DNA of 64,000 nt from Candidatus Curtissbacteria bacterium (GTDB lineage Bacteria; Patescibacteriota; Microgenomatia; Curtissbacterales; GWA2-41-24), in contig JAUSJC010000010.1 of NCBI GenBank assembly GCA_030647775.1, positions 6,208 through 70,207 on the forward strand. The letters are read 5' to 3'. Under the pieces are notes generated by a model, which saw nothing but the letters and a program-made list of their open reading frames with translations, was not told the origin of the DNA and ran no database searches. The translations under genes and the position numbers were made by a program. Positions 753 to 19,620 of the stretch are shown here, one piece after another (position 1 is the stretch's first letter; every line of letters begins with the position of its first letter).

Positions 753-1892
753 ATGCTCTTGAAAATTTTCCTGTCAGTAATTCTTGGTCTCTTAACTTTC
801 ACAACTGTAATTCCAAAACCGTCTCTTGCTGCAGAAAGCGATCAATGCTCCTTTGAGACAAATCCCCCGGCAGACACATGGAATTCTGAAATGGATTATA
901 AAAATATATCTATTAGAATTGGCGCCGCTTTAGCACCAAAGACTAAATATTACGTGGTATACCGAAAATACAATGACACGTTTAAAAATATACGCATTGG
1001 TGAAGGCATAGCTAACGATCAAGGAATCATTGATTCATCCGATCCATCATTTAAATCTAATTACGACAAGGGAGTTTTAAGAGACTACATGGTAGCTCCG
1101 GGAACGCACAGTATTGTCATATTTGAAGGCCCTGGTACTAATAGCAAAATAATCTGTAGCAAAACTTATAAAATTCCGTATTTTGAAACATTGAAATGCA
1201 CAATCGAGGCAAATAAAACAGATAAAAGTTATGGACCCGGCGAAAAGGTTAGTTTCAAGGGCAAATTTTCCATTGAGAAATGGGATAAAACACAAATATC
1301 TTACGCAAATAAGAACATTTCGGTTCAACTTTTAAATAAAAAAGGTGACAGAACAGGCGACTATTATGACAACAACATCACAACAGATAGTAATGGTAAT
1401 TTCGAAATAAGCGATTCGGATAAAATTAAAACTCCTGCAATCACCAATAATGATATTGGTTGGTGGAAACTTAAGGCTGACGAAAAAGATGATATAGGCA
1501 AAAATAGAAGCAAAGAGGCCTGTTATGCTGATATCTATGTCTCCAAAAACCCTAACGAGCCGGTTTCCGGTTCCCCTCCAACTGGTGACGGCGGCAAAAA
1601 CCCTTGTATTAGTGGAACATGCCAAACTGCTCTTGGCCCAATCAAAACAGACCCGGCCGAATTCATTAAAACAATTCTTGGGATTGCCATCGGCCTAGCC
1701 GGCGGTATTGCCTTAATCTTTATGGTCATTGGCGCAATCAGAGTATTAATCTCTTCCGGCGACCAGCAAAAACTGACCGGCGGTAAAGACATGATCGTCG
1801 CCGCTGTTTCCGGTCTTCTGTTTTTGATTCTTTCCGTCCTTATATTAAGATTTATTGGAACAGGCCTCCTAGGAGGAGTCCCGGGACTTTAA
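753..1892 (+). CDS. Secreted protein with a large N-terminal extracellular domain fused to a C-terminal VirB2/TrbC-like pilin module (two hydrophobic helices around an 'SSGDQQKLTGGKD' loop).
   Basis: N-terminal signal peptide (MLLKIFLSVILGLLTFTTVIPKPSLAAE). The C-terminal ~90 aa share the TM-loop-TM architecture and 'ISSGD' loop of the five downstream pilin paralogs. Confidence 0.6.
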   Translation: MLLKIFLSVILGLLTFTTVIPKPSLAAESDQCSFETNPPADTWNSEMDYKNISIRIGAALAPKTKYYVVYRKYNDTFKNIRIGEGIANDQGIIDSSDPSFKSNYDKGVLRDYMVAPGTHSIVIFEGPGTNSKIICSKTYKIPYFETLKCTIEANKTDKSYGPGEKVSFKGKFSIEKWDKTQISYANKNISVQLLNKKGDRTGDYYDNNITTDSNGNFEISDSDKIKTPAITNNDIGWWKLKADEKDDIGKNRSKEACYADIYVSKNPNEPVSGSPPTGDGGKNPCISGTCQTALGPIKTDPAEFIKTILGIAIGLAGGIALIFMVIGAIRVLISSGDQQKLTGGKDMIVAAVSGLLFLILSVLILRFIGTGLLGGVPGL

Positions 1893-1893
1893 T

Positions 1894-2247
1894 ATGATCA
1901 ATTTTCAGCTTATTCCAAACGTTTATGCCGCCTGCGAAAGCTTTTCGAAGTGTCTCGAAGGAATTACAGTGCCAGGCTTAAAACCAGAGTTCAAGTCCGA
2001 AGGTCTTGTCGGTCAGCTCATCAGCACAATTCTCCCCATTGCCCTTGGCATCGGCGGCATGCTGACGGTTGTTTTTATAATTATCTCCGGCATCCAGTTT
2101 ATAACTTCCGGCGGCGATCCCAAAGGCGCGGCGTCCGCCAAAGACAGGCTCGTTTACGCCGTTATCGGCTTTATCGTCCTAATACTTGCCTACGCCGCTT
2201 TGCAAATTATAAGTGGGGTATTTTTAGGCAAAATCGGTATAGTTTAA
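1894..2247 (+). CDS. VirB2/TrbC-like T4SS pilin (117 aa).
   Basis: Signal-like N-terminus followed by TM1, an 'ITSGGDPKGAASAKDR' loop and TM2. Tightly packed with neighbours (stop and start 1 nt apart). Confidence 0.6.
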   Translation: MINFQLIPNVYAACESFSKCLEGITVPGLKPEFKSEGLVGQLISTILPIALGIGGMLTVVFIIISGIQFITSGGDPKGAASAKDRLVYAVIGFIVLILAYAALQIISGVFLGKIGIV

Positions 2248-2248
2248 A

Positions 2249-2818
2249 ATGAAGAATTTAATATTTATTATTTTTGCCGCTTTTTTGTTATCACTGTTTT
2301 TACCTGCAAGTTCCTTTGCCGATCAATGTCCTGCCGGATACAAACCAGATGCAGTAGATCTAGAAGGCATAAACACTTCTGTCTGCTCAAAAGATATACC
2401 TCCACCTTGCGATCCGGCCAAAGGAGAAGAAGATTTTTCGTTTACCGGAAGGAACATTTGTGTCGTCTCAACTATTAGCGGCCCGCCTGCACCTGCACCA
2501 CCAGGTCAACCCACCCAAGGCTCAACCAACTCCTTTGATATAAAAACAATCTTCCAACCTGCTAATCTCTTTGGCGATTTCGGCAACCTTTTAAGTTCCA
2601 TCGTCTCAATCCTTATTAGTGCTTCCTTCATAATCACCATTTTCTTTATCATCACAGGCGGCATTAAAATCGTTACCGCTTCCGGCGATATGAAAAAAAT
2701 CCAGGCGGCCCAAGGGACAATCACCTATGCTATTATTGGTTTAGTCGTAACTGTACTGGCTTTTGTCATTTTACAAGTCGTCCAGTACTTTTTCGGCGCC
2801 AATGTCGGAATTCTTTAA
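2249..2818 (+). CDS. VirB2/TrbC-like pilin paralog with an extended Pro-rich N-terminal region (189 aa).
   Basis: Signal peptide. The C-terminal 'ITGGIKIVTASGDMKKIQAAQGTITYAIIGLVV' helix-loop-helix matches its neighbours. Confidence 0.55.
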   Translation: MKNLIFIIFAAFLLSLFLPASSFADQCPAGYKPDAVDLEGINTSVCSKDIPPPCDPAKGEEDFSFTGRNICVVSTISGPPAPAPPGQPTQGSTNSFDIKTIFQPANLFGDFGNLLSSIVSILISASFIITIFFIITGGIKIVTASGDMKKIQAAQGTITYAIIGLVVTVLAFVILQVVQYFFGANVGIL

Positions 2819-3226
2819 ATGAAAAAGTCCGCAATCATTTTTGTTTCACTTTTCACTTTGACTTTGACTCTCAAATCTCCCGCCTTTGCTCAACTCGGCA
2901 CAATCAAACCGCCGGCAGACTTTAAAATCCCAACAGCCGACGCCAATCCTTCCGTGTTTGTCGCTACACTTGTTAGAAACGGCATTACTCTTCTCCTTGT
3001 CGCTTCCTTTGTTATCGCCCTAATCTGGATAATTTTAAACGGCCTGCGTTTTATCCTTGCCCAGGGGGACGAAAAAACTGTCGCCTCTGCCTGGACCCAG
3101 ATTTACTGGACGCTAATTGGTATGGTAATTATCATGGGCTCTTTTGCTATAATCAAAATGGTTGAAACATTTTTTGGTGTGTCAGTGCTATCTGCAGACT
3201 TGAAATTGCCGCATTTACCGCAGTAA
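2819..3226 (+). CDS. VirB2/TrbC-like pilin paralog (135 aa).
   Basis: Signal peptide 'AFA'. 'ILNGLRFILAQGDEKTVASAWTQIYWTLIGMVII' TM-loop-TM. Confidence 0.55.
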   Translation: MKKSAIIFVSLFTLTLTLKSPAFAQLGTIKPPADFKIPTADANPSVFVATLVRNGITLLLVASFVIALIWIILNGLRFILAQGDEKTVASAWTQIYWTLIGMVIIMGSFAIIKMVETFFGVSVLSADLKLPHLPQ

Positions 3227-3238
3227 AGGGGGTGAGAT

Positions 3239-3697
3239 TTGATGATAAAAATAATTAAAAATACTATCCGCTATATGTCACCGGTATTATTACTGCTGAC
3301 GATTCCGGCAATCGTTATGGCTCAAGCTCCCGCAACACTTCCCGGCGGCAATACTACAACCATAACTCAAACAAGTGGATCTATTCCTATCCCGACAGCT
3401 TTATCACAAACAGGTGACATTACTGTCGTCATTGGCGGCATCATTAGGTTTATTCTTGTTACCGCCTTCGTCATTGCCTTTATCATGCTTTTGGTCGGTG
3501 GCATCCGCTGGATCCTGGCAGGAGGAGATGAAAAAGCTGTCGAAAAGGCCAGGAACACAATAACGGCCGCCCTAATTGGTTTGGTAGTTGTCCTTGTTGC
3601 TTTTGCTCTTATCAGGTTAGTAGAGCTGTTTTTTGGCGTAAATATCATTTCCGGCCTGACGGTTCCAAGAATCAGTCCATTGCAAACACCACTGTAG
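3239..3697 (+). CDS. VirB2/TrbC-like pilin paralog (152 aa).
   Basis: Strong RBS (AGGGGGTGA) upstream. 'LVGGIRWILAGGDEKAVEKARNTITAALIGLVVV' TM-loop-TM. Confidence 0.55.
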   Translation: MMIKIIKNTIRYMSPVLLLLTIPAIVMAQAPATLPGGNTTTITQTSGSIPIPTALSQTGDITVVIGGIIRFILVTAFVIAFIMLLVGGIRWILAGGDEKAVEKARNTITAALIGLVVVLVAFALIRLVELFFGVNIISGLTVPRISPLQTPL

Positions 3698-3701
3698 GCC
3701 T

Positions 3702-4049
3702 ATGCCGCTTTTTATACTGATAACACTTTTTGCAGTAGTTTTTGTTGCGCCGGTTTATGCCCAAACACCTGCACCGCCGGCCCAGATTTCGAATATTGTT
3801 AACGTCCTGGAAAATATCATCAAACTTTTAGCTCCCGCGGCCGGCATCGCCTTTTTTATCATGCTTCTTGTCGGCGGCTATAAATTTATCACTTCCGGCG
3901 GCGACCCAAAGGCGGTCGGCTCCGCCCGCTCCACTTTAACTTATGCCGTCATCGGCATCATTTTAGTCGTCGCCTCCTGGCTAATCCTCCAGTTAATTGC
4001 CACCTTCACCGGCGCCGACGTCACAACCGTTACAATTCCTACGAAATAA
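3702..4049 (+). CDS. VirB2/TrbC-like pilin paralog (115 aa).
   Basis: 'LVGGYKFITSGGDPKAVGSARSTLTYAVIGIILVV' is nearly identical in its loop to the 1894 paralog. Confidence 0.6.
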   Translation: MPLFILITLFAVVFVAPVYAQTPAPPAQISNIVNVLENIIKLLAPAAGIAFFIMLLVGGYKFITSGGDPKAVGSARSTLTYAVIGIILVVASWLILQLIATFTGADVTTVTIPTK

Positions 4050-4095: not shown

Positions 4096-6969
4096 ATGAA
4101 AAAACTCGCCGCCGTTTTTCTATTAGTCATCTTCTTTGGCGCTTCGATTATTGCGACCCCTCTCCAGGCAGGCCATAATCTCCCGGGAAGCCCCTACAAA
4201 AATCCAGACCCGGTAAGGGCCCCATATGGTGACCCCCTGTTCACGACCCAACTTACCAAAGTAACTATGAAACCGATTGAGAAGAAGCTCGAGGGTTTTG
4301 GATCAAACGGTCGCTATTCGGAAGCACAACAAGTAACTCTTGCACATACTTTTGATATTCCTGTTAATTTCGCTGAAGTTTCCGCAATATTCGCCAAATC
4401 TAACTCTGATTATCTGGAAGGCAAATTCCAAGACCAGGATCACCAAAACCAAAATCTGGTCAATTCAAACTCACAAAAATTTAATGAATTCTTTGGCCCC
4501 AGCCAAAAGCTTATGCCAAAAATTATGACAGATGAACTCAAGGTTGAATATATCAACTATGTCAAAGATCACGAGAACCTTCCGGAATACAAAACTAAAA
4601 TTACCGATATCGAAGGCAAAAATTCCAAAACCGTTAGTGATCTGGTGTCCCAATTTGGGATACCAGATTCATCAAAAATCGGATCCGATACATGGGGAAA
4701 ATATTGGGCTAAAATTCCGACAGCTTTTTCTCAACCATATTCCGGGTTTATGGTATTTAGAGTTGTTGACGGTAATAAGGAAAATGACCAAATATTAAAA
4801 CAAGGCACTTGCCCTGATAACGAAAACAACGACAGTCGAATGATTGATTTTGTTCTTCCGGAATATTTCCGGACTGCGGCAACCGCCAACGAATTAAATA
4901 AAATAATTCTCCCGAAAGCAGCCCAATCCGCGCAAAAAAACTTTTTAAAGGAGGCCGTTTCCGGTGTTATTAATAACCTCTCGCCGTTCAAAGATTCCGC
5001 TATTTCTAAAACTTTAGAAAAATTCTTAAGAAGAAGCTTCAATAATCTGAACCCTGTCAAAATTGTTTATGCGCAGACATCGGAGGAAGAGTTACCCCCC
5101 GAACTCCCACCAGAACTCCTACCTTACCGGGAACAATGCCATGCGCCAACGGAATTTCAACTAAAAGATAACCCGGGTTCTGGCCCTTTTTACTCTCTCC
5201 CGGAATTATCGGTACTTATCCCTACCCACCCCCCGCAACTCAATCCCCTTGTTTTTACTAAGAGAAAAAATCCCCAGCGCACAAAAGACCCGGTAACCGG
5301 GGAGAGCTGCAACAATATAGATACTCCCCGCAAAATAGACAACGGTAAGTTTGTAAATTGTACTTTTAAAAAAATCTACGAAAGACAGCTTACAATCGCC
5401 ACGCCAGAGGACGCCCAAGCTCTCGGATGGGATTACTGCACAGAAGGTAAAGATTTGGACGGTAATCCAAGTGGTGTTTCTACATGCTACTTAACTGTAA
5501 GAGTTTACCCGATCTTTTACGTTCCATGGCTTTCGTCAATTTGGAACGATACGGTTTACTCGGACAAAAATGATCCGGCTATTATCTCCGGTGCCCAAGA
5601 AACCGGCCGGCCGGGAATCTTCGGTCTATTTACATCCCAAGGGACAGAAAACTTTATATTCCCGGATGGCAAAAATTTGCCTAGCTTAGAAGATGGCTCG
5701 CGCGATATTAAACAACGTTTTATCGGCGCGGTCGATTGCAACAAGGAATTTATCAAAAATTTTGCTCTGTTACCAAAAGCCCTGCAAGGAAATGGCACAA
5801 GCGGGTGCAATCTAAAAACAAGTAATCTGCCCGGAACCCCAGGCGCCTCGGGTACGCTTGATTTCTATGTTAAATATGGCGACACAAGCATTATTCCGAA
5901 AGACCCCGAAGCAATTAAAAAACTCGCCAACAGTTCGTGGCCGGACAACAACACCAACAGATGGGATTATGTTGTGGACAAATGCGCTTCAAATGGTATC
6001 AGCCCCGCTTTCTGCATCGCCATATGGTGGAAAGAAGGTGGTTTTGGCGGCCTGCTCCCGGGAGGAGGCCGCGCCAATAGCGAATTCGGCTGTTTCCCCG
6101 GCGGCAACACCAACCTTAAAGTCAACTTTGAAGATAGTCTAAACTGCTTTGTAAAATTTACCGCCCAGGAACACCCATACAATCCTCAAAACCCTTATGG
6201 CTCATTTTACGATTGGGTTAAATACTTTTGCGGGCCTTTTTCAAAAGGCTTGTGTACACATGACGATGACGTAAGTAAAGAACACCCAAATTTTCTGCCA
6301 GTTTTAGAAAGTGTTTATAATTCTGTTGCGCCCGGCCAAATTATTTTTGTTTCCAACCCCAACCCGGGCAATCCGGGAACCACTCCGGTTCCCATCGCCG
6401 ATGAACTCTTCAACTTCAAAACAGGTGATAAAGACTGGACCGCTCCGGAGAAAGCGGCAATGAGCCAGACCGCAGGGGTTGCGAATAAATCAGCTGTCTG
6501 GAAAACTCTTGTCTTTGCCGCGGGCAAAATCAATCTACGCAGAGGTACCACAGACCCCGAATGCCCGGATACCTGCTCTGGTTTAGCGCAAGATCCAAAC
6601 ACGCTTCTGATTCGCGACCCCTTCTTCGACCACCCGTCAAGAACTCTCTCCGGCCAAGTTTTTATTATGACTCACGAACTCGCCCATATAATTCAATACC
6701 GCAACCCGTCAATCCTCAATCAGTACAAAAGTAGTGAGGCTTACAAAGAGTTCGAAGATAAAGGCGTAATCAGAAGTTATTTCCTCTGTCCCAACGTAAA
6801 ACCCGGACACTTCTGTGCCAACGGGGTGACGGCGGAAAATGAGGACTATGGGGAAATGGCTGGAAATTATGTCGCGGATCGCGATAGCTATCTGGTGGAC
6901 TTCCCCACAGAGTACCCGCAACACTATAAATTCGCCCAAGATGTATTGTTTGGAGGAACAACATTTTAG
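4096..6969 (+). CDS. Large secreted multidomain protein (957 aa) with a C-terminal HEXXH zinc-metallopeptidase-like motif and a possible lysozyme/SLT-like motif.
   Basis: Signal peptide. 'VFIMTHELAHIIQY' (HEXXH) near the C-terminus. 'SPAFCIAIWWKEGGFGG' loosely resembles the SLT catalytic Glu region. Cys-rich. Confidence 0.6.
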   Translation: MKKLAAVFLLVIFFGASIIATPLQAGHNLPGSPYKNPDPVRAPYGDPLFTTQLTKVTMKPIEKKLEGFGSNGRYSEAQQVTLAHTFDIPVNFAEVSAIFAKSNSDYLEGKFQDQDHQNQNLVNSNSQKFNEFFGPSQKLMPKIMTDELKVEYINYVKDHENLPEYKTKITDIEGKNSKTVSDLVSQFGIPDSSKIGSDTWGKYWAKIPTAFSQPYSGFMVFRVVDGNKENDQILKQGTCPDNENNDSRMIDFVLPEYFRTAATANELNKIILPKAAQSAQKNFLKEAVSGVINNLSPFKDSAISKTLEKFLRRSFNNLNPVKIVYAQTSEEELPPELPPELLPYREQCHAPTEFQLKDNPGSGPFYSLPELSVLIPTHPPQLNPLVFTKRKNPQRTKDPVTGESCNNIDTPRKIDNGKFVNCTFKKIYERQLTIATPEDAQALGWDYCTEGKDLDGNPSGVSTCYLTVRVYPIFYVPWLSSIWNDTVYSDKNDPAIISGAQETGRPGIFGLFTSQGTENFIFPDGKNLPSLEDGSRDIKQRFIGAVDCNKEFIKNFALLPKALQGNGTSGCNLKTSNLPGTPGASGTLDFYVKYGDTSIIPKDPEAIKKLANSSWPDNNTNRWDYVVDKCASNGISPAFCIAIWWKEGGFGGLLPGGGRANSEFGCFPGGNTNLKVNFEDSLNCFVKFTAQEHPYNPQNPYGSFYDWVKYFCGPFSKGLCTHDDDVSKEHPNFLPVLESVYNSVAPGQIIFVSNPNPGNPGTTPVPIADELFNFKTGDKDWTAPEKAAMSQTAGVANKSAVWKTLVFAAGKINLRRGTTDPECPDTCSGLAQDPNTLLIRDPFFDHPSRTLSGQVFIMTHELAHIIQYRNPSILNQYKSSEAYKEFEDKGVIRSYFLCPNVKPGHFCANGVTAENEDYGEMAGNYVADRDSYLVDFPTEYPQHYKFAQDVLFGGTTF

Positions 6970-7450: not shown

Positions 7451-7701
7451 AATGACACTTGTTGTGAAAGGATAAATACCGATTTCACCATCTTGCTCCC
7501 GGTATCTCCCAATGTTAATCTAAATCTACATTCTTAAGCTCCGAAGTCTGTGACTCGCCCTTCCGTAACTTTACGTGAAGGAGGGAATTCAGACACTGTA
7601 CCGCAACCGTCATAGTCGGGTCGAAGGCTTAAGAAGTAAAAATCAGTCCTCGTGTTAAGGACATGCTTTGGCAAACCTTCTCGAGGCGAGGAGGTTTTTT
7701 G

Positions 7702-8838
7702 ATGGCCGAGCGAACCGCAGTTTTAGATAGACATATACCACCATTCGAAGGATCGCCGATCCCCGAAGCACAGCTTGGCTATAACATCCGCTTTGACCGC
7801 CAGGATTATCAAACCCTCGCATCCCAAAGGCCATATCTTTCTCCCCAAGAATTCCAAAGACGCTCCGATCAGCTAGATCTTCGAACCACACACAACCTCC
7901 AAACAATGCTTGGCGAACGTTTCACCGTCGAAATTTCCAAAGTTGAGTATCATCTTATCTCGGGGCAGCTACAAAACCCAGACCACGACGAACCGTTTTT
8001 AGAAATTATCAAACGCGGCCAAAAATTCCGCCAAGAACATGGCTCAAAAGAAATACCCCGTGAAGCGGCGGAAGCCGAAGGTTTTGCTAAGGTTCAAGAA
8101 ATACTAAATACCAGATATACAGAGCCATGCGATCCTAAAGGGCCTAACCAGATACCAGATATTAAAGTCATCGTTGTCTCCCCGCGCGGCCCGAAAGGCT
8201 CAATTTACCAGCACAATTTTTATGACGTTTACTCCCGAAGTTATGATGGCGCAATTACTATGTCCCGCTATACGTCAAAACTTTCTTACGAAGAATTTTA
8301 TCAATCTGCCCGATCAATCGACCCATTATTGAACCTATCCCAAAACCCTACCGACGCCGAATTTTTGGCAAATCCGCTAATCACCTATCAGTCTTTGGAC
8401 CAAATCCAGAAAATCTTTTGCCCACAAGAAAAAGTGATGACGCAAAAAGAATATCAAATGCTGCTCGAAACGTGCGGGTTTTTATTTACAACCTACATAA
8501 ACTGTCTTATAAATGGCTCACCGTTGGCAGAAATCCAAAAAGTCTATAACACCCTATTAAACTTTGCGGATGTTTGGCCAAATACCGTACCAATGCAAAA
8601 CACGGATCAGATTATTTCTCATTACGGAATACTACCGGTTCGCGTTGTCGCCGCCGGCTGCGGTATTCAAAGCGGCTCGGACTCACAAAATTACTCTTCC
8701 TGGTCTGTCGCCGAATTTGGCAAATGGTTTACGTGTCCTAAATGCAACTACGAAGCAACGGGCCCTGTTGGCAATACTTGCCCTGGCTGTGGATTGACAA
8801 AAGAAGAATTTGCCAAAGAATCCCTCGTTTGCGCCTAA
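7702..8838 (+). CDS. Hypothetical protein with a C-terminal zinc ribbon (CPKCN...CPGCG).
   Basis: ATG at 7702 is preceded by GAGGAGG at optimal spacing; the track's upstream start at 7663 lacks an RBS. C-terminal CxxC-x17-CxxC. Confidence 0.55.
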   Translation: MAERTAVLDRHIPPFEGSPIPEAQLGYNIRFDRQDYQTLASQRPYLSPQEFQRRSDQLDLRTTHNLQTMLGERFTVEISKVEYHLISGQLQNPDHDEPFLEIIKRGQKFRQEHGSKEIPREAAEAEGFAKVQEILNTRYTEPCDPKGPNQIPDIKVIVVSPRGPKGSIYQHNFYDVYSRSYDGAITMSRYTSKLSYEEFYQSARSIDPLLNLSQNPTDAEFLANPLITYQSLDQIQKIFCPQEKVMTQKEYQMLLETCGFLFTTYINCLINGSPLAEIQKVYNTLLNFADVWPNTVPMQNTDQIISHYGILPVRVVAAGCGIQSGSDSQNYSSWSVAEFGKWFTCPKCNYEATGPVGNTCPGCGLTKEEFAKESLVCA

Positions 8839-8968: not shown

Positions 8969-10465
8969 ATGAAAACTGTCCTTATAAAAATATCTTCAAT
9001 TCTTTTTATCTTTTTGTTCCTGACAATCGCATTTACTCCTCTCGCTCAAGCTCAAACATCGAAATGCACCCCGTCTGCAGATCTCAAAAATAACACCATT
9101 GACGCTATTAACCAATGCGCCATTGAAAGCGGTGCTTTTGATGATAAAATTTTTAATCTCAACCAAATTGCCGGCACAGTCGATAGCTTAAGTACTCTAT
9201 TAACCGGCCAATCTCAACTCCACCCGGCAACAAACAGCATCACCGCAGACGCCGGAGCGCTCACGGCTTCCGGAAAACTTATTGCCAGCCTTTATTCCAT
9301 TCCTCCCGTCTCCGGAGTCCAATATTTTGCACAACAAATTCAAAAATTTAACCCTGTCCAACCAGCTTATGCCCAAACATCTGCCGGAATCGGTTTTAAC
9401 GCACTATCACCGGTTCAAGATGTCTGGGCCGCTTTCAGGAATTTCTCTTACGTCGGCTTCGTCCTTGTCTTTATCGTCATCGGTTTTATGATTATGTTTC
9501 GCTCTAAAATTTCTCCGCAGGCCGTCGCCACCATCCAAGATTCACTGCCAAGAATTGTTGTCGCCCTCATCCTTGTCACCTTCAGCTACGCTATCGTCGG
9601 GTTGATGATTGATTTAATGTTCGTCCTCTTAAACGTTACAATTAACGCTTTAGGTGCTGCTGGCCTTACAACCGCCAATGCAGAAAAAGTAACCAACTCA
9701 AATGTCTTTAGCGTTGTCATGGGTTCACAAAAAGACATTTTTGGTGCGGTATTTGAAGCCGTTTCCGGCATTATTAAAAATGTATTTGATAATAATTGGT
9801 TAACTAAAATAATCGGGGTTCTCGGAGGATCAATTTTTGGGGTCATAGCAGGAATTGCCATGCTCTTTGTGATGTTCCGAATCTTTATAATGCTTTTGAT
9901 GTCCTACATAAGTATCATCATACTGACTATATTTGCTCCTTTTATATTACTTTTCCATGCCCTGCCCGGCAATAACGGCGCTAAAGAATGGTTCAAACAA
10001 GTAGGAGCCAACGTCGCCGTTTTCCCGACAGTTGCCTTAATGTTTATTTTGGCAGGGATGTTAAGCGGTATAGCATCACTCGGAGGCACAGCTGGCAGCC
10101 AGTTTAGTTCTGGTAACGTGGGGCAATTCCCTCTCCTTTCCGGGGGATTAGGACTTACAAATATCGGCAGTCTCATTGGTTTGGGTATTTTATTCATGAC
10201 ACCCGGAGCAGCAAAGATGGTTAAAGAAAGATTGGGAGTTAAAGAGGGTGCAATCGGAGCAGGCGGAGCCATGGCCGGTGCAGCTCTTGGCGCCGGAGCC
10301 GGCGCACTTGGCAGACCATTTGGTGCCGCTATCAACCCTGTCAGGCAATCACTCTCCTATCAATATGGGGCTGGAATGGCACAAAGAATCGGCAGATTTA
10401 CTGGTAAAACCGATAAAACCTCAACACCAAGCGAAGCAGAAGTAGAAGCAACCCAACGTTCTTAA
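8969..10465 (+). CDS. Polytopic membrane protein, VirB6/TrbL-like candidate (498 aa).
   Basis: Signal peptide, ~150-aa exported domain, at least five TM segments, and a Gly/Ala-rich hydrophilic tail, as in VirB6/TrbL. Lies within the T4SS-like locus. Confidence 0.5.
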   Translation: MKTVLIKISSILFIFLFLTIAFTPLAQAQTSKCTPSADLKNNTIDAINQCAIESGAFDDKIFNLNQIAGTVDSLSTLLTGQSQLHPATNSITADAGALTASGKLIASLYSIPPVSGVQYFAQQIQKFNPVQPAYAQTSAGIGFNALSPVQDVWAAFRNFSYVGFVLVFIVIGFMIMFRSKISPQAVATIQDSLPRIVVALILVTFSYAIVGLMIDLMFVLLNVTINALGAAGLTTANAEKVTNSNVFSVVMGSQKDIFGAVFEAVSGIIKNVFDNNWLTKIIGVLGGSIFGVIAGIAMLFVMFRIFIMLLMSYISIIILTIFAPFILLFHALPGNNGAKEWFKQVGANVAVFPTVALMFILAGMLSGIASLGGTAGSQFSSGNVGQFPLLSGGLGLTNIGSLIGLGILFMTPGAAKMVKERLGVKEGAIGAGGAMAGAALGAGAGALGRPFGAAINPVRQSLSYQYGAGMAQRIGRFTGKTDKTSTPSEAEVEATQRS

Positions 10466-10473
10466 AACCGGGA

Positions 10474-13400
10474 CTATTTCCCTGAAACCTGCGCGCTGGA
10501 TTGGCTAAAGACCCCTTTAAATAGCGCCCATAAGAAAACTAAAAAGAAAGGCATCAAGTTGCTCGGCTTTTTTAGTTCACTCCCCATCACCCGGATCATT
10601 TCCAGATATTCCTTCAAAGTCCTGATCGGTACTATACCGGGAATCCCAGCAAGCTTTAAATATTTCTCTTTCATTCTCTCCGCGTCCTTGTGGTCTAACC
10701 GGTTTGTAGCGGCAGACACATCAAGTATCTGTTCAATTTCCGCCGAAGGCATATTATATTCACGTCCCCACCAGTCTTTCCAATGCTTGCCCATCTCCTG
10801 ATGCATTGGAACCAGTAACTTCATCCACGGATGCATTCTTATCTCACGGGTTGAATAGAACATCTTACGGTTATTAATGCCCATAAAAGTTTTGGTATCG
10901 GGACTGTTTAAATACGTCTGGCAAGCGTCTGCCGCGAAATACTTCTTCGTTTCTTTTCTGTCTGTCCACCAGTCTCCCATATTGTATTTAATAATATTTG
11001 TTTTCTCATTACTAAAAACCTCGCTCCAGCTAATATTTTGAAAAGTTAACTCCCCGTCATCTACTAACTCCTCGAGTGCAACTCCCCTTACCCAACCCCT
11101 ATCATTGGAATCACCACCCTCCCAGTTATTATCTAAGCTTTTACCGCCATTCCACTTTCCAATGTCGAGCTTACGCCCGTTATCGATATTCTTCATCCTG
11201 TCTGCAACTACATTCGCAAAACGTCTACTGGGGATACCAGGCCTTGCAACAACCAGCTTGTTTGCAATACCAGCATCAACATCATCATCCATTCGCAGCT
11301 TGTCATTGATAAGTTTAATAAGTAAGCGGTTATTGCCCAGTATTCCGCGCCTTCTGCCAAGCATATGTTTCGTTAATATGTAGTTGGCGTCCCTTGGCCT
11401 GCCTCTTACCTCATTTTGTAAAAATTCACCATAATGGTCTACCATCCTGCCAAACCAAACATCCGAATAATTGTTAAAAACAAAAGCCCCAAGCTTTTTT
11501 CTGCTCCTGCCATTATCATCCTTAAACCATTCTCCCTTTTTTTTGTCTCTATCCCATATCCTTATGCCGTCATAATCGGAAAACCCTCCCAATGTCCAAG
11601 TTACGTTGTAACCGTTATTAATAACCTGATCCAAAAGCCCCGCCTGAAGAAATTCGTCAATCTTATCACCCGATAAGCCCATTCCACCCAATCTGGTTTT
11701 AAGCGCATCAAGCAGGTCTTTCTTTCTCGTCCTTAAATAATGATAATCAGGGTCTGTTTCCTTATAACCGTGAGCACCCAGTAAAGTAGTCTCTCGATAC
11801 CAATCCAAAACAACTTTTTCCGCATTGCTAGGTTTAGCCCAGTATTCATTTATTGCATCATCGCTGGCGCCAACCCCAATTTTTTTCTTTACATAACCCT
11901 TTATCTCATCCCTTAATCGATTAAGTTCACCACGATCGACTACTGCCGATTTATCAAAAAGGTTCTTAATCTCTTCCGGCACGGTAACAAAATCTGTAGT
12001 TATATCTACTAAAGTCAGGCCTTCGACAAGATTCATCTGTGCCCTTTCCTTTGAAAACCGCTCAAAATAAACCTTCATCGCAACATCCAGTAAGTTAAAC
12101 TTTTCCGTCTCGTAAACCGGATTTCCACTGGCATCAACAATAGGATTACCAGCGGCATCTTTTTTCTGAATTCGGGAAACGAAATCATCCCCGTTATGAT
12201 CTTGAAAAAACCTGTCGAAAAAGATTTTAAAAGTATCATCCTTCCATAAGTTATTGCCAGCAATCGCTTCAAGCACTTTATCCGGATCCATCGCGTGCCC
12301 CTCCATAGTCAGGCGCAGAGAATAAATCGCAATAACCGCGTCTCTTAATTCATCTATTTTCATTTTCAGCTCCATCGCCTCCTTCTTTTCCTTTCCTGTT
12401 AAAGTTTCAACGGGTATCGCGTCAGAAATTTGGGTGATTACTTGTCTCACCCGACTAACTTCTTCCTGCGTCGAATTACCCGATTCCAACCGCCTGAAAT
12501 TGTTTTGCACATTCTTCATTGAGTCTTGCCAGTCTTTTGGGATACCGTATTCTGACTCTCTAACAATATTCAATCTGACACCCTCAAAAGTCGTCGAGGC
12601 TCTCCATTCCAGAAGCCCTTCAGCCCCCGCCACAGCTGGACGGCTTTTTGCGTACTCATAAAGCTGATAGTCAAAATCAGGCAGATGAATATTACCGATA
12701 CTAAGAGACCCCTCCAACTCTTTAATTTTGATGTCAAGAGGGTTAAAAAGACGCGCCCTTACCCCCGGCCCCAAAGCCTGAGCCCTCCCTCGAAGGGCCT
12801 CATCCATCTCTTTGGATAACTTTTTAAGATCATCTCTTCTAGCTTTGGGTACAATGCTGTCCAAAATTGCTTGTCTCGGGGTCCCTTTTGCTAAAATCTC
12901 ATGAGTTTCAATAGCATTCCCCAAGTTCTTTACAAAACGGTACCCGTCACCTCCAACCGTAGCTAGCCTTCTTGCTTCGATAAATTGGAAATCGAGAACC
13001 TCCCTCCGTGCATCAACAGCATCCACCTGAATTATCGTCAGGGGCCCAATAAGTGAAGTCTTAACGAGTAATTCCTGTATTATCTTCTCCGTAGAACCCA
13101 GCTTGACTAAACGAGCCATAATTCTCCCTTTAGCAACTCCAAACTCAGCATCAAATGCAACAGTGTCAGCCATTATCCTTTGTATGGATTTCAATGTCTC
13201 TAGCTGTAAAAGGTTGTAATCAACCAAGGAGTCCCTGTAGCTTTCATAGTCCATACGTCTCATCTCCATCATGTCTCCCAAACGCTTCTCATAATCTGAA
13301 TAAAAATCTTCAAATTTCCGAAATATTTCAGGCCTATCATCGCTCGAGCCTAACGCTCCACGCATCTCCATATCATCTAATATTCCAAGCCTCCTATGAA

Positions 13401-14925: not shown

Positions 14926-15318
14926 ATGGGTGATTTTACAAAACTTATTATTTGGCAAAAAGCTCACGATCTAACAATTAAGGTCTACGCTTTAACAAAA
15001 AAGCTACCTAAAACCGAAGATTATAGCTTGAAATCGCAATTGAGACGAGCTGCAGTCTCCTGTGAGTCAAACATTGCCGAAGGAGAAACCAGATACACTG
15101 ACGCAGCAAAAATCAACTTCTTTGTAGATTCAAGGTCATCCGGTGCAGAAGTTCAAAGTCAGTTGATGATTATGCGTGACGTTTATCCAGAATTATCAGA
15201 AGAATCCGAAGCATTACGTTTGGAATACGAAGATTTTTGCAAACAAACCAACAGCCTAATTTCGTTTAGAAGAAAATCTAACCTAATATCCCAAAATCCA
15301 AAAAACCTAACAGCCTAA
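14926..15318 (+). CDS. Four-helix-bundle protein (family formerly called 23S rRNA intervening-sequence protein).
   Basis: 'IWQKAHDLTIKVYALTKKLPKTEDYSLKSQLRRAAVSCESNIAEGE' matches the TIGR02436-type signature. Its 3' end is built from a family-A CCTAA half-repeat. Confidence 0.75.
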   Translation: MGDFTKLIIWQKAHDLTIKVYALTKKLPKTEDYSLKSQLRRAAVSCESNIAEGETRYTDAAKINFFVDSRSSGAEVQSQLMIMRDVYPELSEESEALRLEYEDFCKQTNSLISFRRKSNLISQNPKNLTA

Positions 15319-16826
15319 TGAACCAACACCCTGTCCCGCAGCATATCGCCTCTTTCGAATTTAAGCTTTTTGGCAACCTTACCATCCGCCAATTTGTCGC
15401 TCTTTCCATTCCAATGTCTGTTGCCGCCCTTATTTTCTTTTCCCCGGGCCCAACCATCATCCGCTTTCCATTTTCCATCTTCTTCGCCGGCCTCGGCCTG
15501 TTTGCCGCTCTTGTCCCGGTCCAGGGACGCCCTTTTGATAAATGGGTCGTTGCCTTCACGAGGGCCATCCTTTCACCAACCCAAAGGGTTTGGGTTAAAG
15601 AAGCCAAAATCCCGCAGTTTTTAAATATCATCATAAACCAGCCCAAACACCCCAATGAGCCCCCCCAACCCATTACCTTTCAGGACCGCCAAAGGCTTTC
15701 CCAGTACTTGAGATCACTCCCCAAATCCACAGTTTCGCCTCTGGATGTTAGAGAACAGCAGGCCATCGAAAAGCTCGGCCTCGTTCCTCCGGTGCAGGGC
15801 TTGCCCTCCGAAGCTTTAGCGAAGGAGGGCAAACTTCCCCCTTCAATCCTTTGGACAACTGCCGGCCCCAAGACCAAACAGGCGTTCGTCCAAACTACCG
15901 AACCGATCTTGGAAGAACGGTTCCAGGGAATTATGCCCCAAGCCTTACCCCAAATAACTCCGCTTGGAAAACCGGCAACCGCCGTTAGAATCAGCCCCCA
16001 CGCTAAACCGTATGCCCTGCCCGGCCTGGAAAAAAGGCTCGCCGAAAAACAAATTCTCGTTTCCCCCACGCTTCAGCTGGCTTCAAACACCAACTTTTCT
16101 ATTGAAAACATCATTCCTATCCCCGGCAAACATGTCAGGCTTCTGCACGGTCTTACCAAAAGCCGCACGCGAAAACTCCATTTTGCCCCGCCGAAGAATT
16201 TCAATCTTGCCAATCTGCCGGTGCGCGGCGAAGCAAGATTCGAAGTCTCCGAAGAATTGAAAAAACGCTTCCAATTTAATGAACCGGCACTCCAGCCTAT
16301 ACCCCAAGCCCAAGAAACCCCGGTGCAAACACCGAAAATCGAAGTTGAACCGCAACGCGCGTCCGCTCACCAGGCGCCAAGGCCGCCGAAACAAAATCAA
16401 TTTGTTCCCAGACCGCAAACAGCTCACTTCACTGCCCAAAACGCCACGCTAAAACAGGAAGAATCCGAACGTGCAGATTCGCAAATGACCATTCGGGGCC
16501 AAAAGGTTGACGGCACCAAATCTGCTTCTATTTTAGAAAGGGCCCGTATTATCCCTTTAACAAACACCCCCAATGTTCTCTCCGGCTTGGTTTCCGATGC
16601 CGCCGGTATTCCTCTTGAAGGCGCAATCATTACTGTCCGCGACCAAAGCGGCATACCGGTTCGCGCCTTAAAAACCAATAAGCTTGGCCAGTTTCTTTCA
16701 ACAACTCCTCTTATAAGCGGCGTTTATTCTTTGGAAATTGAGCACACAAACGCCCGTTTTGAACCAATCACCATTAATCTTATCGGCAACATTGTGGTAC
16801 CACTGGAGATTAAAGCCAAAGGATGA
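15318..16826 (+). CDS. PrgI-like (VirB3-analogous) T4SS membrane protein with a ~380-aa C-terminal extension.
   Basis: N-terminal 'FEFKLFGNLTIRQFVALSIPMSVAALIFF ... FFAGLGLFAALVPVQGRPFDKWV' gives two TM helices typical of the PrgI family. Lies just upstream of virB4. Confidence 0.5.
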   Translation: MNQHPVPQHIASFEFKLFGNLTIRQFVALSIPMSVAALIFFSPGPTIIRFPFSIFFAGLGLFAALVPVQGRPFDKWVVAFTRAILSPTQRVWVKEAKIPQFLNIIINQPKHPNEPPQPITFQDRQRLSQYLRSLPKSTVSPLDVREQQAIEKLGLVPPVQGLPSEALAKEGKLPPSILWTTAGPKTKQAFVQTTEPILEERFQGIMPQALPQITPLGKPATAVRISPHAKPYALPGLEKRLAEKQILVSPTLQLASNTNFSIENIIPIPGKHVRLLHGLTKSRTRKLHFAPPKNFNLANLPVRGEARFEVSEELKKRFQFNEPALQPIPQAQETPVQTPKIEVEPQRASAHQAPRPPKQNQFVPRPQTAHFTAQNATLKQEESERADSQMTIRGQKVDGTKSASILERARIIPLTNTPNVLSGLVSDAAGIPLEGAIITVRDQSGIPVRALKTNKLGQFLSTTPLISGVYSLEIEHTNARFEPITINLIGNIVVPLEIKAKG

Positions 16827-17803
16827 AAATCATGTCACAAACTCCTAAAACTAAAGCTTCAACCCAACAGCACCTTGATGTCGAAGATATCACCGAAGAC
16901 TTGGTCATTTTAAAAACCGGCTGGGTGGCCATGGTCATGTCGACAACTGCCATCAATTTCGACCTTCTTTCTGAAGCCGAACAAGACGCTACAATCTATG
17001 CTTTCGGCGCCTTTTTGAATTCGCTCACTTTCCCGCTTGAAGTATTAATTAGAAGTAAAAAAGCCGACATTACCTCTTACTTCCAAAGCCTTGAGGAAGC
17101 CCAGCGCATTCAGCCTAACCCTGATCTTAAAAGGCAAATCCAAAAATATCAGGAGTTTATTCAGGCAACCGTCCAGCAAAAAACAGTTTTGGATAAAAGG
17201 TTCTATTTAATCATTAATTATTCCCCGCTTGGGCCCGAGTTTAAAGGCTTCGGCAAAAATAGCCAAAACCCAAAGAGTAAGGCCCAGCTTATCCAAACTG
17301 CCAAAAGCGCTCTTTCCCCGAAGCGCGACCATGTTATCAAACAAACCGCCAGGCTTGGTATTAATACCCGCCAGCTCATGTCGCAGGAATTGATCGAACT
17401 TTTTTATGATATTTATAACCCGGCCCCAACCGGCACTCAAAGGGTTATTTTGGATGCCGCCTCGTACACTACCCCGCTGGTAGAACCGGCAATCGCCAAC
17501 CCCACGCCGGCATCAGGGCCGGCTGTCGAACAGGAACTTACCAATATTAATAGACCGCAAGCAGGTGAAATAGTAACTCAGCAGGAAACAAATCTGCGAC
17601 CCGTACCGCCAGCCTCGACGCCCGCTTCGACGCGAGGCGAGCTAGGCGGGTCAGCCTCGGCTCAAGGCGGGCCGCCTCCGACGCAGGCTCCACCTGTACC
17701 CCAGCCGGCACAATATGTCACCGCTGCACCGACCCAAGCCGAGCCGCAAGCCGTGGCCCCAAACCCTAACCCAATTCAGGAAACTGGAGGTAACAACCAA
17801 TGA
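16823..17803 (+). CDS. Hypothetical T4SS-associated protein with a Pro/Ala-rich C-terminus, translationally coupled to virB4.
   Basis: ATGA overlaps at both ends. No TM segment. Sits between the PrgI-like gene and virB4. Confidence 0.5.
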   Translation: MKIMSQTPKTKASTQQHLDVEDITEDLVILKTGWVAMVMSTTAINFDLLSEAEQDATIYAFGAFLNSLTFPLEVLIRSKKADITSYFQSLEEAQRIQPNPDLKRQIQKYQEFIQATVQQKTVLDKRFYLIINYSPLGPEFKGFGKNSQNPKSKAQLIQTAKSALSPKRDHVIKQTARLGINTRQLMSQELIELFYDIYNPAPTGTQRVILDAASYTTPLVEPAIANPTPASGPAVEQELTNINRPQAGEIVTQQETNLRPVPPASTPASTRGELGGSASAQGGPPPTQAPPVPQPAQYVTAAPTQAEPQAVAPNPNPIQETGGNNQ

Positions 17804-19620
17804 AGTTTTTCCCTGATATCTTTGGTAAAAAACCGCAAGCCGCCGCCAATCTTTCCGATCAGGAAAGCGGCTGGGCCCAAACGCTGGCAACCGGATCGGT
17901 TTCAGTCCAGGATATCATCGCCCCTCCGGCCATAGAAGTTGATTTCGATTTCATTAAAATCGGCGCCTATTATTACCGCACCCTTTTTGTCATCGGCTAC
18001 CCCCGGTTTGTCGAGGCAAACTGGCTCTCCCCCTTAATTAACTTTGAGCACACATTGGAAATTGCTCTCTACTCTTATCCGGTCGAGGCCAAAGGCGTCC
18101 TTGACGACTTAAAGCGCAAAATGACCGAAATGGAGGCAACCATTGCTACCGATATCCAGCACGGGCACCTAATCGACCCGGCTGTCCAGGCTGCGCTAGA
18201 AGATGCCCAGATGCTTCAGGAAGAACTGGTCAAAGGCGCCGAAAGGTTCTTTCAGTTTGGCCTTTATGTCACTGTCCCGGCACAATCCAAAGAAGAACTC
18301 GATGAAGTCACCAAGCAAGTCGAATCAACGCTTGGCTCCCTGCTTCTTGTCCCAAAACACGCCTCACTGCAGCAGGAAGATGCTTTTAAAACCACCCTCC
18401 CGCAAGGTACCGACCACATTTATATCACCAGGAATATGGATACCACTTCCCTGGCCACAACTTTCCCTTTTGTCTCCTCATCGCTAACCTCCAATTCCGG
18501 CATCATGTACGGCATCAATGAGCATAACGGCTCATTGGTAATTTTCGACCGTTTTAGCCAGGAAAACGCCAATTCCGTAATCTTTGCCAAATCCGGCGCC
18601 GGCAAATCTTATCTGGTTAAACTCGAAGCCCTCCGTTCCCTCATGTTTGGCACCGAAGTCATTGTCATCGACCCCGAAGAAGAATATAAAACCCTTTGCC
18701 AGGCAATCGGCGGCGAGTTAATCAGCTTTAACTTCTCATCTGAAGCCAAAATCAACCCTTTCGACCTTTCCGGAATCTATGAAGAAGGCGAAAACGAACT
18801 GGGCTTAAAAATCCTTTCCCTCCACGGGCTTTTTAAAATAATCATGGGCAATCTTACCCCTTCGGAAGATGCCCTCCTTGACCGTGCGCTGGTTGCCACC
18901 TATAAAGCCAAAGGCATCACCCCCGATCCGGCTACCCAGCAAAACGAACCGCCTTTGATGGAAGACCTCTATAAAGTTTTAATTGGTATGGAAGAGTCAA
19001 CCGCCAAGGGCCTTGCCGACAGGATTGAAAGATTCGTTAAGGGCTCACTAGTTGGCATCTTCAACCAGCAAAGCAATATCGATATCAAAAATACCTTCAC
19101 CGTTTTTTCGATTAAAGACCTGGAAAACGAACTTCGCCCCATTGCTATGTACTTAATTTTGGATTTCATCTGGACCAAGGTCAAAAATGATATCAGGAAA
19201 CGGCTTCTAATAGTCGACGAGGCCTGGTACTTAATGCAGTATCCGGACAGCGCTTCATTTATGTACGGCATCGCCAAACGCGCCAGAAAGTATTACCTTG
19301 GCTTAACGACAATCACCCAGGATGTCGAAGATTTTCTAACCACCGACTACGGCCGCGCTATCGTTACCAACTCAAGTATCCAGATTCTTCTTAAACAATC
19401 CCCGGCGGCCATCGACCAGGTCGCCGATACTTTTTACCTTTCCGAGGGCGAAAAGCATCTTCTCCTTTCTGCCGATATTGGGGAAGGCATCTTTTTTGCC
19501 GGCCCCAACCATGTTGCCATCAGGATTGTGGCTTCAGACGATGAGCATGCCCTCGTAACCACTAATCCAAAGGAACTCCAGGAGATGGCCAAAGCCCAAG
19601 AACTCCAAAAGCAATTTTAA
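17800..19620 (+). CDS. virB4: VirB4/TrbE-family T4SS ATPase (606 aa, short Gram-positive/CPR type).
   Basis: Walker A 'IFAKSGAGKSYLV' and Walker B 'RLLIVDEAWYLM'. N-terminal 'IEVDFDFIKIGAYYYRTLFVIGYPRFVEANWL' resembles the VirB4 N-domain. Confidence 0.8.
   Translation: MKFFPDIFGKKPQAAANLSDQESGWAQTLATGSVSVQDIIAPPAIEVDFDFIKIGAYYYRTLFVIGYPRFVEANWLSPLINFEHTLEIALYSYPVEAKGVLDDLKRKMTEMEATIATDIQHGHLIDPAVQAALEDAQMLQEELVKGAERFFQFGLYVTVPAQSKEELDEVTKQVESTLGSLLLVPKHASLQQEDAFKTTLPQGTDHIYITRNMDTTSLATTFPFVSSSLTSNSGIMYGINEHNGSLVIFDRFSQENANSVIFAKSGAGKSYLVKLEALRSLMFGTEVIVIDPEEEYKTLCQAIGGELISFNFSSEAKINPFDLSGIYEEGENELGLKILSLHGLFKIIMGNLTPSEDALLDRALVATYKAKGITPDPATQQNEPPLMEDLYKVLIGMEESTAKGLADRIERFVKGSLVGIFNQQSNIDIKNTFTVFSIKDLENELRPIAMYLILDFIWTKVKNDIRKRLLIVDEAWYLMQYPDSASFMYGIAKRARKYYLGLTTITQDVEDFLTTDYGRAIVTNSSIQILLKQSPAAIDQVADTFYLSEGEKHLLLSADIGEGIFFAGPNHVAIRIVASDDEHALVTTNPKELQEMAKAQELQKQF

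Follow-up and report, generated by a model that had tools for sequence, protein, structure and literature searches.

The locus described here raises the question of why a tiny bacterium would encode six divergent pilin-like proteins side by side and what these proteins might build. The window, by which we mean the whole 64,000-nucleotide (nt) stretch of contig JAUSJC010000010.1 (assembly GCA_030647775.1) that was analyzed, derives from a metagenome-assembled genome (MAG) of Candidatus Curtissbacteria, an uncultured member of the Patescibacteria (candidate phyla radiation, CPR). This lineage consists of tiny host-dependent bacteria already known for carrying type IV secretion systems (T4SSs). 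MDO8487139.1, a protein of a Candidatus Curtissbacteria MAG, matches the sixth pilin of the array at 100% identity, and the homologs of the first pilin likewise come from Curtissbacteria. The first-pass annotation described the genes as six tandem VirB2/TrbC-like pilin paralogs, the first of them carrying a large secreted domain, and proposed that their multiplicity reflects antigenic or functional diversification of a pilus. The explanation that we consider best overall, with a probability of roughly 0.6, is that the array encodes the complete VirB2-like pilin set of a Curtissbacteria T4SS, acting by the mechanism set out below.

Inspection of the array (Table 1) confirmed six consecutive genes of the claimed sizes (115–379 residues) at positions 753–4049, and all six open reading frames (ORFs) are real. 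The intergenic distances were measured as 1, 1, 0, 12, and 4 nt, so the close spacing stands, whereas the annotated range of 1–5 nt is exceeded by the 12-nt gap between pilins 4 and 5. Minus-strand ORFs within the region are short, unsupported overlaps. As had been proposed, hydropathy analysis revealed a pair of long hydrophobic helices with a short connecting loop at the C terminus of every protein, the loop sequences of pilins 1–6 being ISSGDQQK, ITSGGDPK, VTASGDMK, ILAQGDEK, ILAGGDEK, and ITSGGDPK, respectively. A short-pilin hidden Markov model (HMM) applied to the whole 64 kb recovered exactly these six modules and no seventh, with scores of 76–126 bits for a model that includes the window's own sequences. 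The six modules share a mean identity of 27.2% (maximum of 37.9%), and the only DNA repeat found between the six genes is a 24-nt stretch that genes 5 and 6 share in helix 1. A promoter scan returned 11 matches against 12.4 expected, which is not above chance; one TG-extended match ends 10 nt upstream of the pilin 1 ATG.

All six proteins matched PF18895 (T4SS_pilin), with genes 2, 3, 5, and 6 exceeding the gathering cut-off of 26.6 bits, and many pilin 1 orthologs carry a precomputed match to the same family. The TrbC/VirB2 family PF04956 was matched below its cut-off by gene 4 and is present in the precomputed tables of many pilin 6 orthologs; the window pilins are therefore related to PF04956 at the superfamily level only. 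Each of the six also matched NF045849, a pilin-like conjugal transfer protein of Mycoplasma integrative and conjugative elements (ICEs), below the curated cut-off of 40 bits (34.8 bits and E = 9.5e-9 for gene 2, the best, and 16–24 bits for the others). Direct reading of the sequences showed the class III prepilin signal (G↓F/M-xxx-E, the arrow marking cleavage) in none of the six, all of which have the C-terminal two-helix hairpin instead. Together with a T4SS locus containing a bona fide VirB4, the PF18895 and PF04956 matches uphold the VirB2/TrbC-like identity given to the array, and the assignment to VirB2-like pilins of a T4SS is very probably correct.

The AlphaFold2 model of pilin 6 (mean predicted local distance difference test score, pLDDT, of 86.2) comprises a signal helix and a hairpin of helices 29–64 and 69–103. 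Its best match in the PDB, as judged by Foldseek, was the Aeropyrum pernix conjugation pilin 8dfu (template modeling, TM, score of 0.71 on the target) at a nonsignificant E value of 0.93. The Pyrobaculum pilin 8dft ranked seventh among the fold matches, which also included ATP synthase subunit c and histidine-kinase helices.

To place the array among its relatives, its order was compared in eight genomes or contigs (the window, L001, L003, L007, L008, L009, L010, and L011) and surveyed with six orthogroup HMMs in 80 metagenome loci, some of which represent the same organisms as the eight genomes. A profile search of genome contigs with the pilin 1 module yielded three loci. Comparison of paralog number across relatives, which the first-pass annotation had recommended, gave six pilins in each of the eight genomes, always in the order 1-2-3-4-5-6 with the long one first. 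The full order was also found in 28 of the 80 metagenome loci, and most arrays truncated by a contig end are a suffix of it. In a neighbor-joining tree of 36 modules from six genomes (the window, L001, L003, L007, L008, and L009), the sequences formed six clean clades by position, with identities of 52–66% between orthologs versus 26–28% between paralogs within a genome (maxima of 38–45%). The ratio of nonsynonymous to synonymous substitutions (dN/dS), determined by the Nei-Gojobori method for the pilin modules of ortholog pairs, was 0.08–0.39, indicating purifying selection. This ratio had been suggested for the paralogs themselves, which are too divergent for it to be meaningful at 26–28% protein identity, and orthologs were compared instead; the pilin 1 ectodomain was left out because its nearest relatives carry nonhomologous domains. 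By these comparisons, the array consists of six ancient, non-interchangeable paralogs in a fixed order.

Wang et al. 2023 (PMC10633639) showed for a cultivated relative, Southlakia epibionticum, that its pilin array (SEML1_0014–0019, six PF18895 genes) is essential when it grows as an epibiont; the transposon sequencing (Tn-seq) table of that study lists SEML1_0016–0019 as essential, and its text calls the pilin subunits essential. Given six old, ordered orthogroups under purifying selection, the lack of repeats indicative of recent duplication, and an array that is essential in a cultivated relative, the suggestion that multiplicity means antigenic diversification was not sustained. Six subunits with separate roles fit both the ordered orthogroups and the essentiality of the S. 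epibionticum array, whereas antigenic variation by choice of paralog does not fit six ordered orthogroups with dN/dS values of 0.08–0.39.

The most distant metagenome loci (about 52–55% identity to pilin 6) displayed other patterns, including eight-gene arrays in L080 and L082 (order 1-2-2-3-6-5-5-6), L087 (1-2-2-4-3-5-5-6), and L091. The eight-gene arrays show apparent duplications of orthogroups 2, 5, and 6, as assigned, possibly imprecisely, with HMMs of Curtissbacteria.

Sequence conservation is unevenly distributed along the pilins. Within orthogroups, identity was 13–31% in the N-terminal part, 21–48% in the C-terminal tail, 52–76% in the helices, and 61–89% in the loop. According to Costa et al. 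2016 (PMC5018250), the two ends of the pilin face outward in F and pED208 pili, and the lumen is lined by the loop between the helices. The pattern observed here fits what would be expected of a VirB2-type assembly.

The claim that pilin 1 is a pilin onto which a large, cysteine-containing secreted domain has been built was corroborated: a signal peptide is followed by about 270 extracytoplasmic residues with six cysteines and then by the pilin module (residues 301–373). The AlphaFold2 model (pLDDT of 79.6) shows a signal helix, two β-sandwiches, a β-hairpin at residues 289–298, and the two helices. Foldseek matches to the whole model were generic tandem immunoglobulin (Ig)/macroglobulin-type sandwiches (E values of 1e-5 to 1e-3) and included no specific adhesin family. 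Pfam gave only marginal fn3, MG2, and Kre9 matches for 23 long pilins, and one relative of pilin 1 is named as a NEW3 domain protein in UniRef. The cysteine pairs Cys32/Cys135 and Cys149/Cys257 are conserved in the ectodomain family and Cys285/Cys290 at the junction with the module, suggesting three probable disulfides; the N-domain cysteine count is even in 114 of 118 position-1 homologs. Junction residues Asn283, Pro284, Cys285, Cys290, Thr292, Ala293, and Gly295 are invariant in 23 sequences, and 118 of the 121 position-1 pilins contain the NPC motif, in a junction of the form NPC-x(n)-C-xTA. The pilin at position 1 is always the long form (235–512 residues) with an N-terminal ectodomain. 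The proposed role of the pilin 1 ectodomain as a tip adhesin is plausible.

In stark contrast to its anchor, the ectodomain of pilin 1 is poorly shared among homologs. The 84-residue anchor is about 70–88% identical across 120 homologs, whereas no more than about five of the 120 matched most of the 269-residue ectodomain, at 26–34% identity. A search of 1.84 billion representative proteins identified 11 relatives of the ectodomain. Ten of these are 321–413 residues long, like long pilins, and eight of the ten align across most of the domain; the eleventh (1365 residues) matched only in a 16-residue stretch that is repeated 11 times. The ectodomains of 118 position-1 pilins fell into 36 sequence clusters, and anchor identity was 68.6% within versus 67.3% between these clusters, so ectodomain type is uncoupled from anchor divergence. 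In the two closest contigs, L010 and L011, the pilin modules share 80–97% DNA identity, which drops abruptly to 31–46% over the signal peptide and ectodomain of pilin 1 and falls likewise in the N-terminal portions of pilins 4–6. By these alignments, close relatives carry wholly replaced ectodomains on a retained anchor, and strain-level diversification sits in the exposed N-terminal parts, above all in the pilin 1 ectodomain. The targets of cell attachment may be determined by this exchangeable Ig-like domain on the surface.

A diversity-generating retroelement (DGR) was considered as a cause of this hypervariability and was rejected, as no template/variable repeats were found near the reverse transcriptase encoded at 61.5 kb, which is 57 kb away. 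The reverse transcriptase ORF (RVT_1) lies at 60664–62869, within a low-GC stretch at 60–64 kb (GC of 0.36–0.38), and shows partial similarity to group II intron, Drt, and retron-type enzymes far below cut-off; Rfam detected no intron RNA near it. The preceding ORF has weak similarity to an IscB endonuclease model (positions 170–238 of 314).

Signal peptides were judged by hydropathy and the presence of AxA-like sites, from which the cleavage positions given here are inferred. Five of the six pilins have a signal-peptide-like N terminus, contrary to the claim of six, since pilin 2 (N terminus, MINFQLIPNVYAACESF) has no hydrophobic signal segment. No longer form of pilin 2 is possible because the frame is closed by a stop eight codons ahead of the ATG and holds no start codon in that interval. 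A frameshift fusion that would supply the missing signal peptide was rejected: the spacing of genes 1 and 2 varies among genomes (+1, −4, +2, and +48 nt), and there is therefore no conserved recoding signal. Pilin 2 has a conserved C-x5-C pair (Cys14 and Cys20) ahead of helix 1. In L003 and L009, the orthologous proteins have the same Cys motif preceded by a signal peptide and an ectodomain, and the ortholog in L007 carries a signal peptide and a dockerin-bearing extension (dockerin repeat) without the motif.

Pilin 3 has a signal peptide, an extension of ~85 residues with four cysteines (positions 27, 46, 54, and 71), a Pro-rich linker, and a module at residues 112–178; the extension is absent in the seven other genomes, where pilin 3 is leaderless and 100–112 residues long. 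In pilin 4, a signal peptide (...AFA↓QLG) and a short N-tail precede the module, and the position-4 orthologs are 47–60% identical. The orthologs of pilin 5 are 63–65% identical, and a ribosome-binding-like site (GGGGGTGA) lies upstream of its gene. Pilin 6 comprises a signal peptide (...VYA↓QT) and helices 29–64 and 69–103 around the loop TSGGDPK.

Across the eight genomes, a signal peptide is missing at position 3 in seven, at position 2 in five, and at position 4 in four. An ectodomain is always accompanied by a signal peptide, and it is our guess that the short N-tails of leaderless pilins cross the membrane by a YidC-type route. Leaderless orthologs at positions 2 and 3 start at an apparent former cleavage site (M-x-x-YAA...), and those at position 4 start at the mature N terminus of the signal-peptide-bearing orthologs (...LAQ-x-GTI-x-PP). 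In six metagenome loci (L038, L045, L047, L049, L064, and L085), pilin 2, 3, or 4 has an apparent large N-terminal region, orthogroup 2 reaching about 830–850 residues and orthogroup 3 about 446 residues; because ORF lengths in metagenome loci were counted from the first start codon of the open frame, these values may be overestimates.

The array lies about 11–19 kb upstream of genes for PrgI/VirB3-like, TrsD-like, VirB4, and cell-wall hydrolase proteins, in the same locus as dnaN/dnaA. Among the scanned ORFs of at least 110 residues in the 64 kb, no type IV coupling protein (T4CP) or relaxase was found, and the T4SS of the window is probably chromosomal and non-conjugative. The polytopic 498-residue protein encoded between the array and these genes is the most conserved member of the block (52–63% identity across related loci); VirB6 homologs are described as scarce in Microgenomatia in a 2025 survey (PMC12102498).

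The mechanism that we propose begins with insertion of the pilins into the cell membrane in an N-out/C-out orientation with the GGDxK loop in the cytoplasm. Five pilins would enter via a Sec signal peptide, and pilin 2 would probably insert like a short-tailed YidC-type substrate. A VirB4-driven machine would extract the subunits on a VirB6-like platform, for which the 498-residue protein is the best candidate, and the subunits would stack into a hetero-oligomeric pilus or stalk that crosses the wall towards a host cell, with the lumen lined by the loop and both protein termini on the outer surface of the filament. Pilin 1, with two Ig-like domains on its outward N terminus, would most likely be the host-contact subunit. 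As the first subunit to be incorporated, it may come to occupy the tip, since pilus growth proceeds from the base and VirB5 is missing from the system. Between strains, its ectodomain would be exchanged as a cassette with retention of the anchor. Pilus formation and adhesin function are both inferred, and we judge the chances that these sequences describe a filament with pilin 1 as its adhesin to be about even. A more specific proposal, in which six specialized VirB2-like subunits form a filament and orthogroup 1 provides a cassette-swappable, Ig-like receptor-binding tip and nucleator that replaces VirB5 and sets host range, is tentative and on balance doubtful. If this were so, the sharp recombination boundaries at the module starts would be traces left by an arms race against host surfaces, and the six-subunit filament would differ from pili described as built from one VirB2-type pilin.

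Several observations weigh against an assembled pilin set. Genes 1 and 4 scored 23.5 and 23.4 bits (E values of about 6e-5), just under the PF18895 cut-off, and PF04956 was matched in the window by gene 4 only, with 17.8 bits and an E value of 0.004 against a cut-off of 27.9. A profile of 27 short pilins, compared with PDB sequences, retrieved no solved pilin; its matches were confined to designed hairpins of helices that have GDPK loops. The topology and the signal-peptide cleavage are putative, as read from sequence and hydropathy. The array is separated from virB3/virB4 by 11 kb that include a gene of 1385 codons on the opposite strand. The published accounts considered here show no pilus for any Patescibacteria T4SS, a pilus being treated as a possibility in reviews (PMC12857230), and monoderm T4SSs are normally pilus-less, those of Gram-positive bacteria being so described (PMC12102498, PMC12857230). 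Moreover, the conservation pattern fits equally well a membrane-resident hairpin with both ends outside. The six proteins could alternatively be parts of a translocation channel (a VirB2-like collar or stalk base, like that of wall-less or monoderm systems) that never form a filament, with pilin 1 as a hairpin-anchored surface adhesin. Apart from the pilus-less state of Gram-positive systems and the exposure pattern, this is favored by the sub-threshold matches of all six proteins to NF045849 (best E value of 9.5e-9), by the similarity of the polytopic neighbor to the adjacent membrane protein of Mycoplasma ICEs, and by the match of the ORF at 16823–17803 to TrsD and to VirB4 of Mycoplasma ICEs in its N-terminal portion. 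It is nonetheless unlikely in our estimation, given that the best structural match is a polymerized pilin, that the highly conserved helix surfaces suggest extensive protein-protein packing, and that six non-redundant paralogs, in an array essential in S. epibionticum (at least SEML1_0016–0019 as listed), are hard to reconcile with a mere anchor.

A recent amplification of interchangeable variants for antigenic variation or alternative host binding, like that of the Bartonella Trw and Anaplasma systems, would account for the tandem layout, the low identity between copies, and the hypervariability of exposed parts between strains, and the analogy has been proposed in PMC12102498. It is made very improbable by position-specific orthogroups whose order is conserved in dozens of lineages, copies that cluster by position, module dN/dS values of 0.08–0.39, and shared DNA repeats limited to a single 24-nt stretch; the Tn-seq listing of SEML1_0016–0019 also argues against redundancy. 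Least probable of all is that the pilin label is an artifact and that the genes encode unrelated small two-helix membrane proteins (holin-like, ATP-synthase-c-like, or type IV pilus pilins). The hairpin fold is admittedly generic, as the ATP synthase subunit c and histidine-kinase matches illustrate, and no solved pilin was found by sequence, but the PF18895 matches are consistent, PF04956 occurs in orthologs, T4SS synteny is conserved in all related loci, the G↓FxxxE signal is missing from all six proteins, and, in the cultivated relative, the array and the T4SS are both reported from experiments as essential. An assembled, complete VirB2-like pilin set thus remains our preferred explanation.

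Patescibacteria were already known from the literature to have tandem VirB2-like arrays, and the system in the window is not of a new kind. Quinonero-Coronel et al. 2025 (PMC12102498) described 441 arrays of 2–11 VirB2-like pilin genes with about 25% mutual identity and T4SSs that are derived from the mating-pair formation class MPF-FATA, are often near dnaA, and mostly lack a relaxase; Microgenomatia, the class that contains Curtissbacteria, was named as rich in pilin arrays. The window shares with these arrays the tandem PF18895/PF04956 genes, the proximity to virB4/prgI/trsD and dnaA, the lack of a relaxase, and a monoderm MPF-FATA-type VirB4. A 2025 review (PMC12857230) speaks of a set of six VirB2-like pilins, conserved in structure and divergent in sequence, which may assemble into a pilus. 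The S. epibionticum array also has six members, a likeness in number that does not imply one-to-one orthology; its longest pilin has the module at residues 115–180, and no large folded ectodomain is mentioned for it. Indeed, none of the published accounts PMC12102498, PMC10633639, and PMC12857230 mentions a large folded N-terminal ectodomain on a pilin, position-specific orthogroups, cassette-like replacement, or leaderless members.

With VirB2, TraA, and TrbC of F, pED208, and T pili, the window pilins have in common small size, an apparent leader (in five of the six), two long hydrophobic helices, a short loop with a basic residue, genes encoded alongside those of VirB3, VirB4, and VirB6 type, and a pattern that fits outward termini and a loop in the lumen. 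They differ in their weak PF04956 similarity, in the absence of VirB5, VirB7–11, or an outer-membrane complex, and in comprising six subunits instead of one, of which one is leaderless and one has about 270 extra extracellular residues. The archaeal conjugation and Ced-type pilins (8dfu and 8dft) share 13% sequence identity with a nonsignificant Foldseek E value and belong to another domain of life with other machinery.

The Mycoplasma ICEs, like the window, have monoderm MPF-FATA-type systems. All six pilins match NF045849 (Mbov_0395), the 498-residue protein matches the Mbov_0396/MMCAP2_0566 models, and VirB4 and the TrsD-like ORF match the Mbov_0397 model. The NF045849 matches are, however, below cut-off (at most 34.8 versus 40 bits), the ICEs have a single pilin-like copy versus six here, and they are conjugative, whereas no relaxase or coupling protein was found here. 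These sequence similarities hint at a pilin-like gene as a native component of monoderm MPF-FATA systems, a class from which VirB2-like pilins are treated as absent (PMC12102498).

The Bartonella Trw and Anaplasma arrays resemble the present one in having several tandem virB2-like genes, a T4SS without coupling protein, and a proposed role in host-surface contact. By contrast, they are lineage-specific amplifications presumed to be antigenic or host-range variants, whereas the array described here is ancient, ordered, and under purifying selection. A functional analogy may be drawn with minor pilins that bear a bulky cap domain, such as GspK of the type II secretion system (T2SS) and those of type IV pilus (T4P) tip complexes, and with VirB5, which serves diderm T4SSs as tip adhesin and nucleator. 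The likeness lies in a conserved, ordered set of pilin-like subunits that includes one with a large globular domain for which only the tip would offer room. There is no homology to GspK, VirB5, or T4P tip complexes, and a tip position for pilin 1 is suggested by analogy.

A large part of the diversity of uncultured bacteria belongs to the Patescibacteria, which live attached to other cells, and the T4SS, including the pilin array, is among the few machines shown to be essential for the epibiotic lifestyle. The analysis provides three handles on it: a fixed, ordered six-subunit set, a conserved core and loop set against hypervariable exposed ends, and one exchanged surface domain. If the pilin 1 ectodomain were a host-recognition element, it could serve in host prediction and matching for uncultured CPR lineages and as a guide for cryo-electron tomography and Saccharibacteria genetics.

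Table 1. Coordinates of the pilin array, the parts of pilin 1, leaderless orthologs, and associated genes (window positions unless another locus is named)
Feature	Position (nt)	Strand	Description
Pilin 1, orthogroup 1	753-1892	+	379-residue ORF; signal peptide, two Ig-like domains, Cys-loop junction, helix-loop-helix module
Signal peptide of pilin 1	753-830	+	residues 1-26, ...PSLAA↓ES; hydrophobic 1-23, model helix 2-19, low-confidence linker 23-28; putative cleavage site
Tandem Ig-like ectodomain of pilin 1	840-1541	+	residues ~30-141 and ~145-263; all-β AlphaFold2 model
Junction motif NPC-x4-C-xTALG	1599-1646	+	residues 283-298, small β-hairpin before helix 1; strands 289-292 and 295-298
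Pilin module of pilin 1	1653-1871	+	helix 301-333, loop SSGDQQK, helix 338-373; PF18895 at 302-367
Pilin 2, orthogroup 2	1894-2247	+	117 residues; PF18895, 45.2 bits
Pilin 3, orthogroup 3	2249-2818	+	189 residues; PF18895, 29.1 bits
Pilin 4, orthogroup 4	2819-3226	+	135 residues; PF18895, 23.4 bits; PF04956, 17.8 bits, E 0.004
Pilin 5, orthogroup 5	3239-3697	+	152 residues from TTG 3239, or 151 from ATG 3242; PF18895, 35.2 bits
Pilin 6, orthogroup 6	3702-4049	+	115 residues; PF18895, 44.2 bits
Leaderless-ortholog regions	window 1894-2247; L001 11092-12106; L007 11323-12138; L008 11162-12170; L009 11886-12620; L010 2403-3070
957-residue secreted Cys-rich protein	4096-6969	+	18 Cys; directly downstream of array
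498-residue polytopic membrane protein	8969-10465	+	candidate VirB6-like platform; weak NF045848 and NF045889 (Mycoplasma ICE) matches
PrgI/VirB3-like	15318-16826	+	PF12666 PrgI
TrsD-like	16823-17803	+	326 residues; TrsD NF041427
VirB4 ATPase	17800-19620	+	TraG P-loop, AAA_10; NF045971, 388 bits (curated cut-off 325)
Peptidoglycan hydrolase	19738-22734	+	998 residues; M23 peptidase and YkuD; functionally VirB1-like
dnaN/dnaA	24177-27012		yidC also nearby

The array is followed by the gene for a secreted, Cys-rich protein of 957 residues, and no terminator-like site was found on the + strand between the two. In most related loci, a counterpart of residues 1–570 of this protein (27–42% conserved) likewise follows the array. 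The last ~390 residues, which contain a HELAH (HExxH) motif and a WWKEGGFGG stretch, were unmatched in the related loci compared, and the protein as a whole had no match in Pfam, NCBIfam, PADLOC, or the PDB. PADLOC likewise returned nothing for the unannotated neighbors, and Rfam and tRNA scans of the window returned nothing. The remaining genes of the window are housekeeping genes.

Between the array and the VirB6-like gene, positions 7663–8838 encode a 391-residue protein without a signal peptide that bears a C-terminal CxxC...CxxC zinc-ribbon-like motif and is 28–42% conserved in related loci; its sole, marginal match was to DUF1563 (20.4 bits, cut-off of 21). At the start of the window, a minus-strand ORF (1–460) that runs off the end shows 57% identity over 89 residues to a PaaX_M-domain protein of L001. 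Between this ORF and the pilin genes lies a perfect 7-bp GC-rich hairpin (435–452) with T-runs on both strands, resembling a bidirectional terminator. A gene for a PF05635 protein (“23S rRNA intervening sequence protein”) is located just before prgI (14926–15318) and is also found in L001 (2710–2970), and in L009 a copy of a PF05635 gene (11497–11865) is inserted within the pilin array itself, between pilins 2 and 3.

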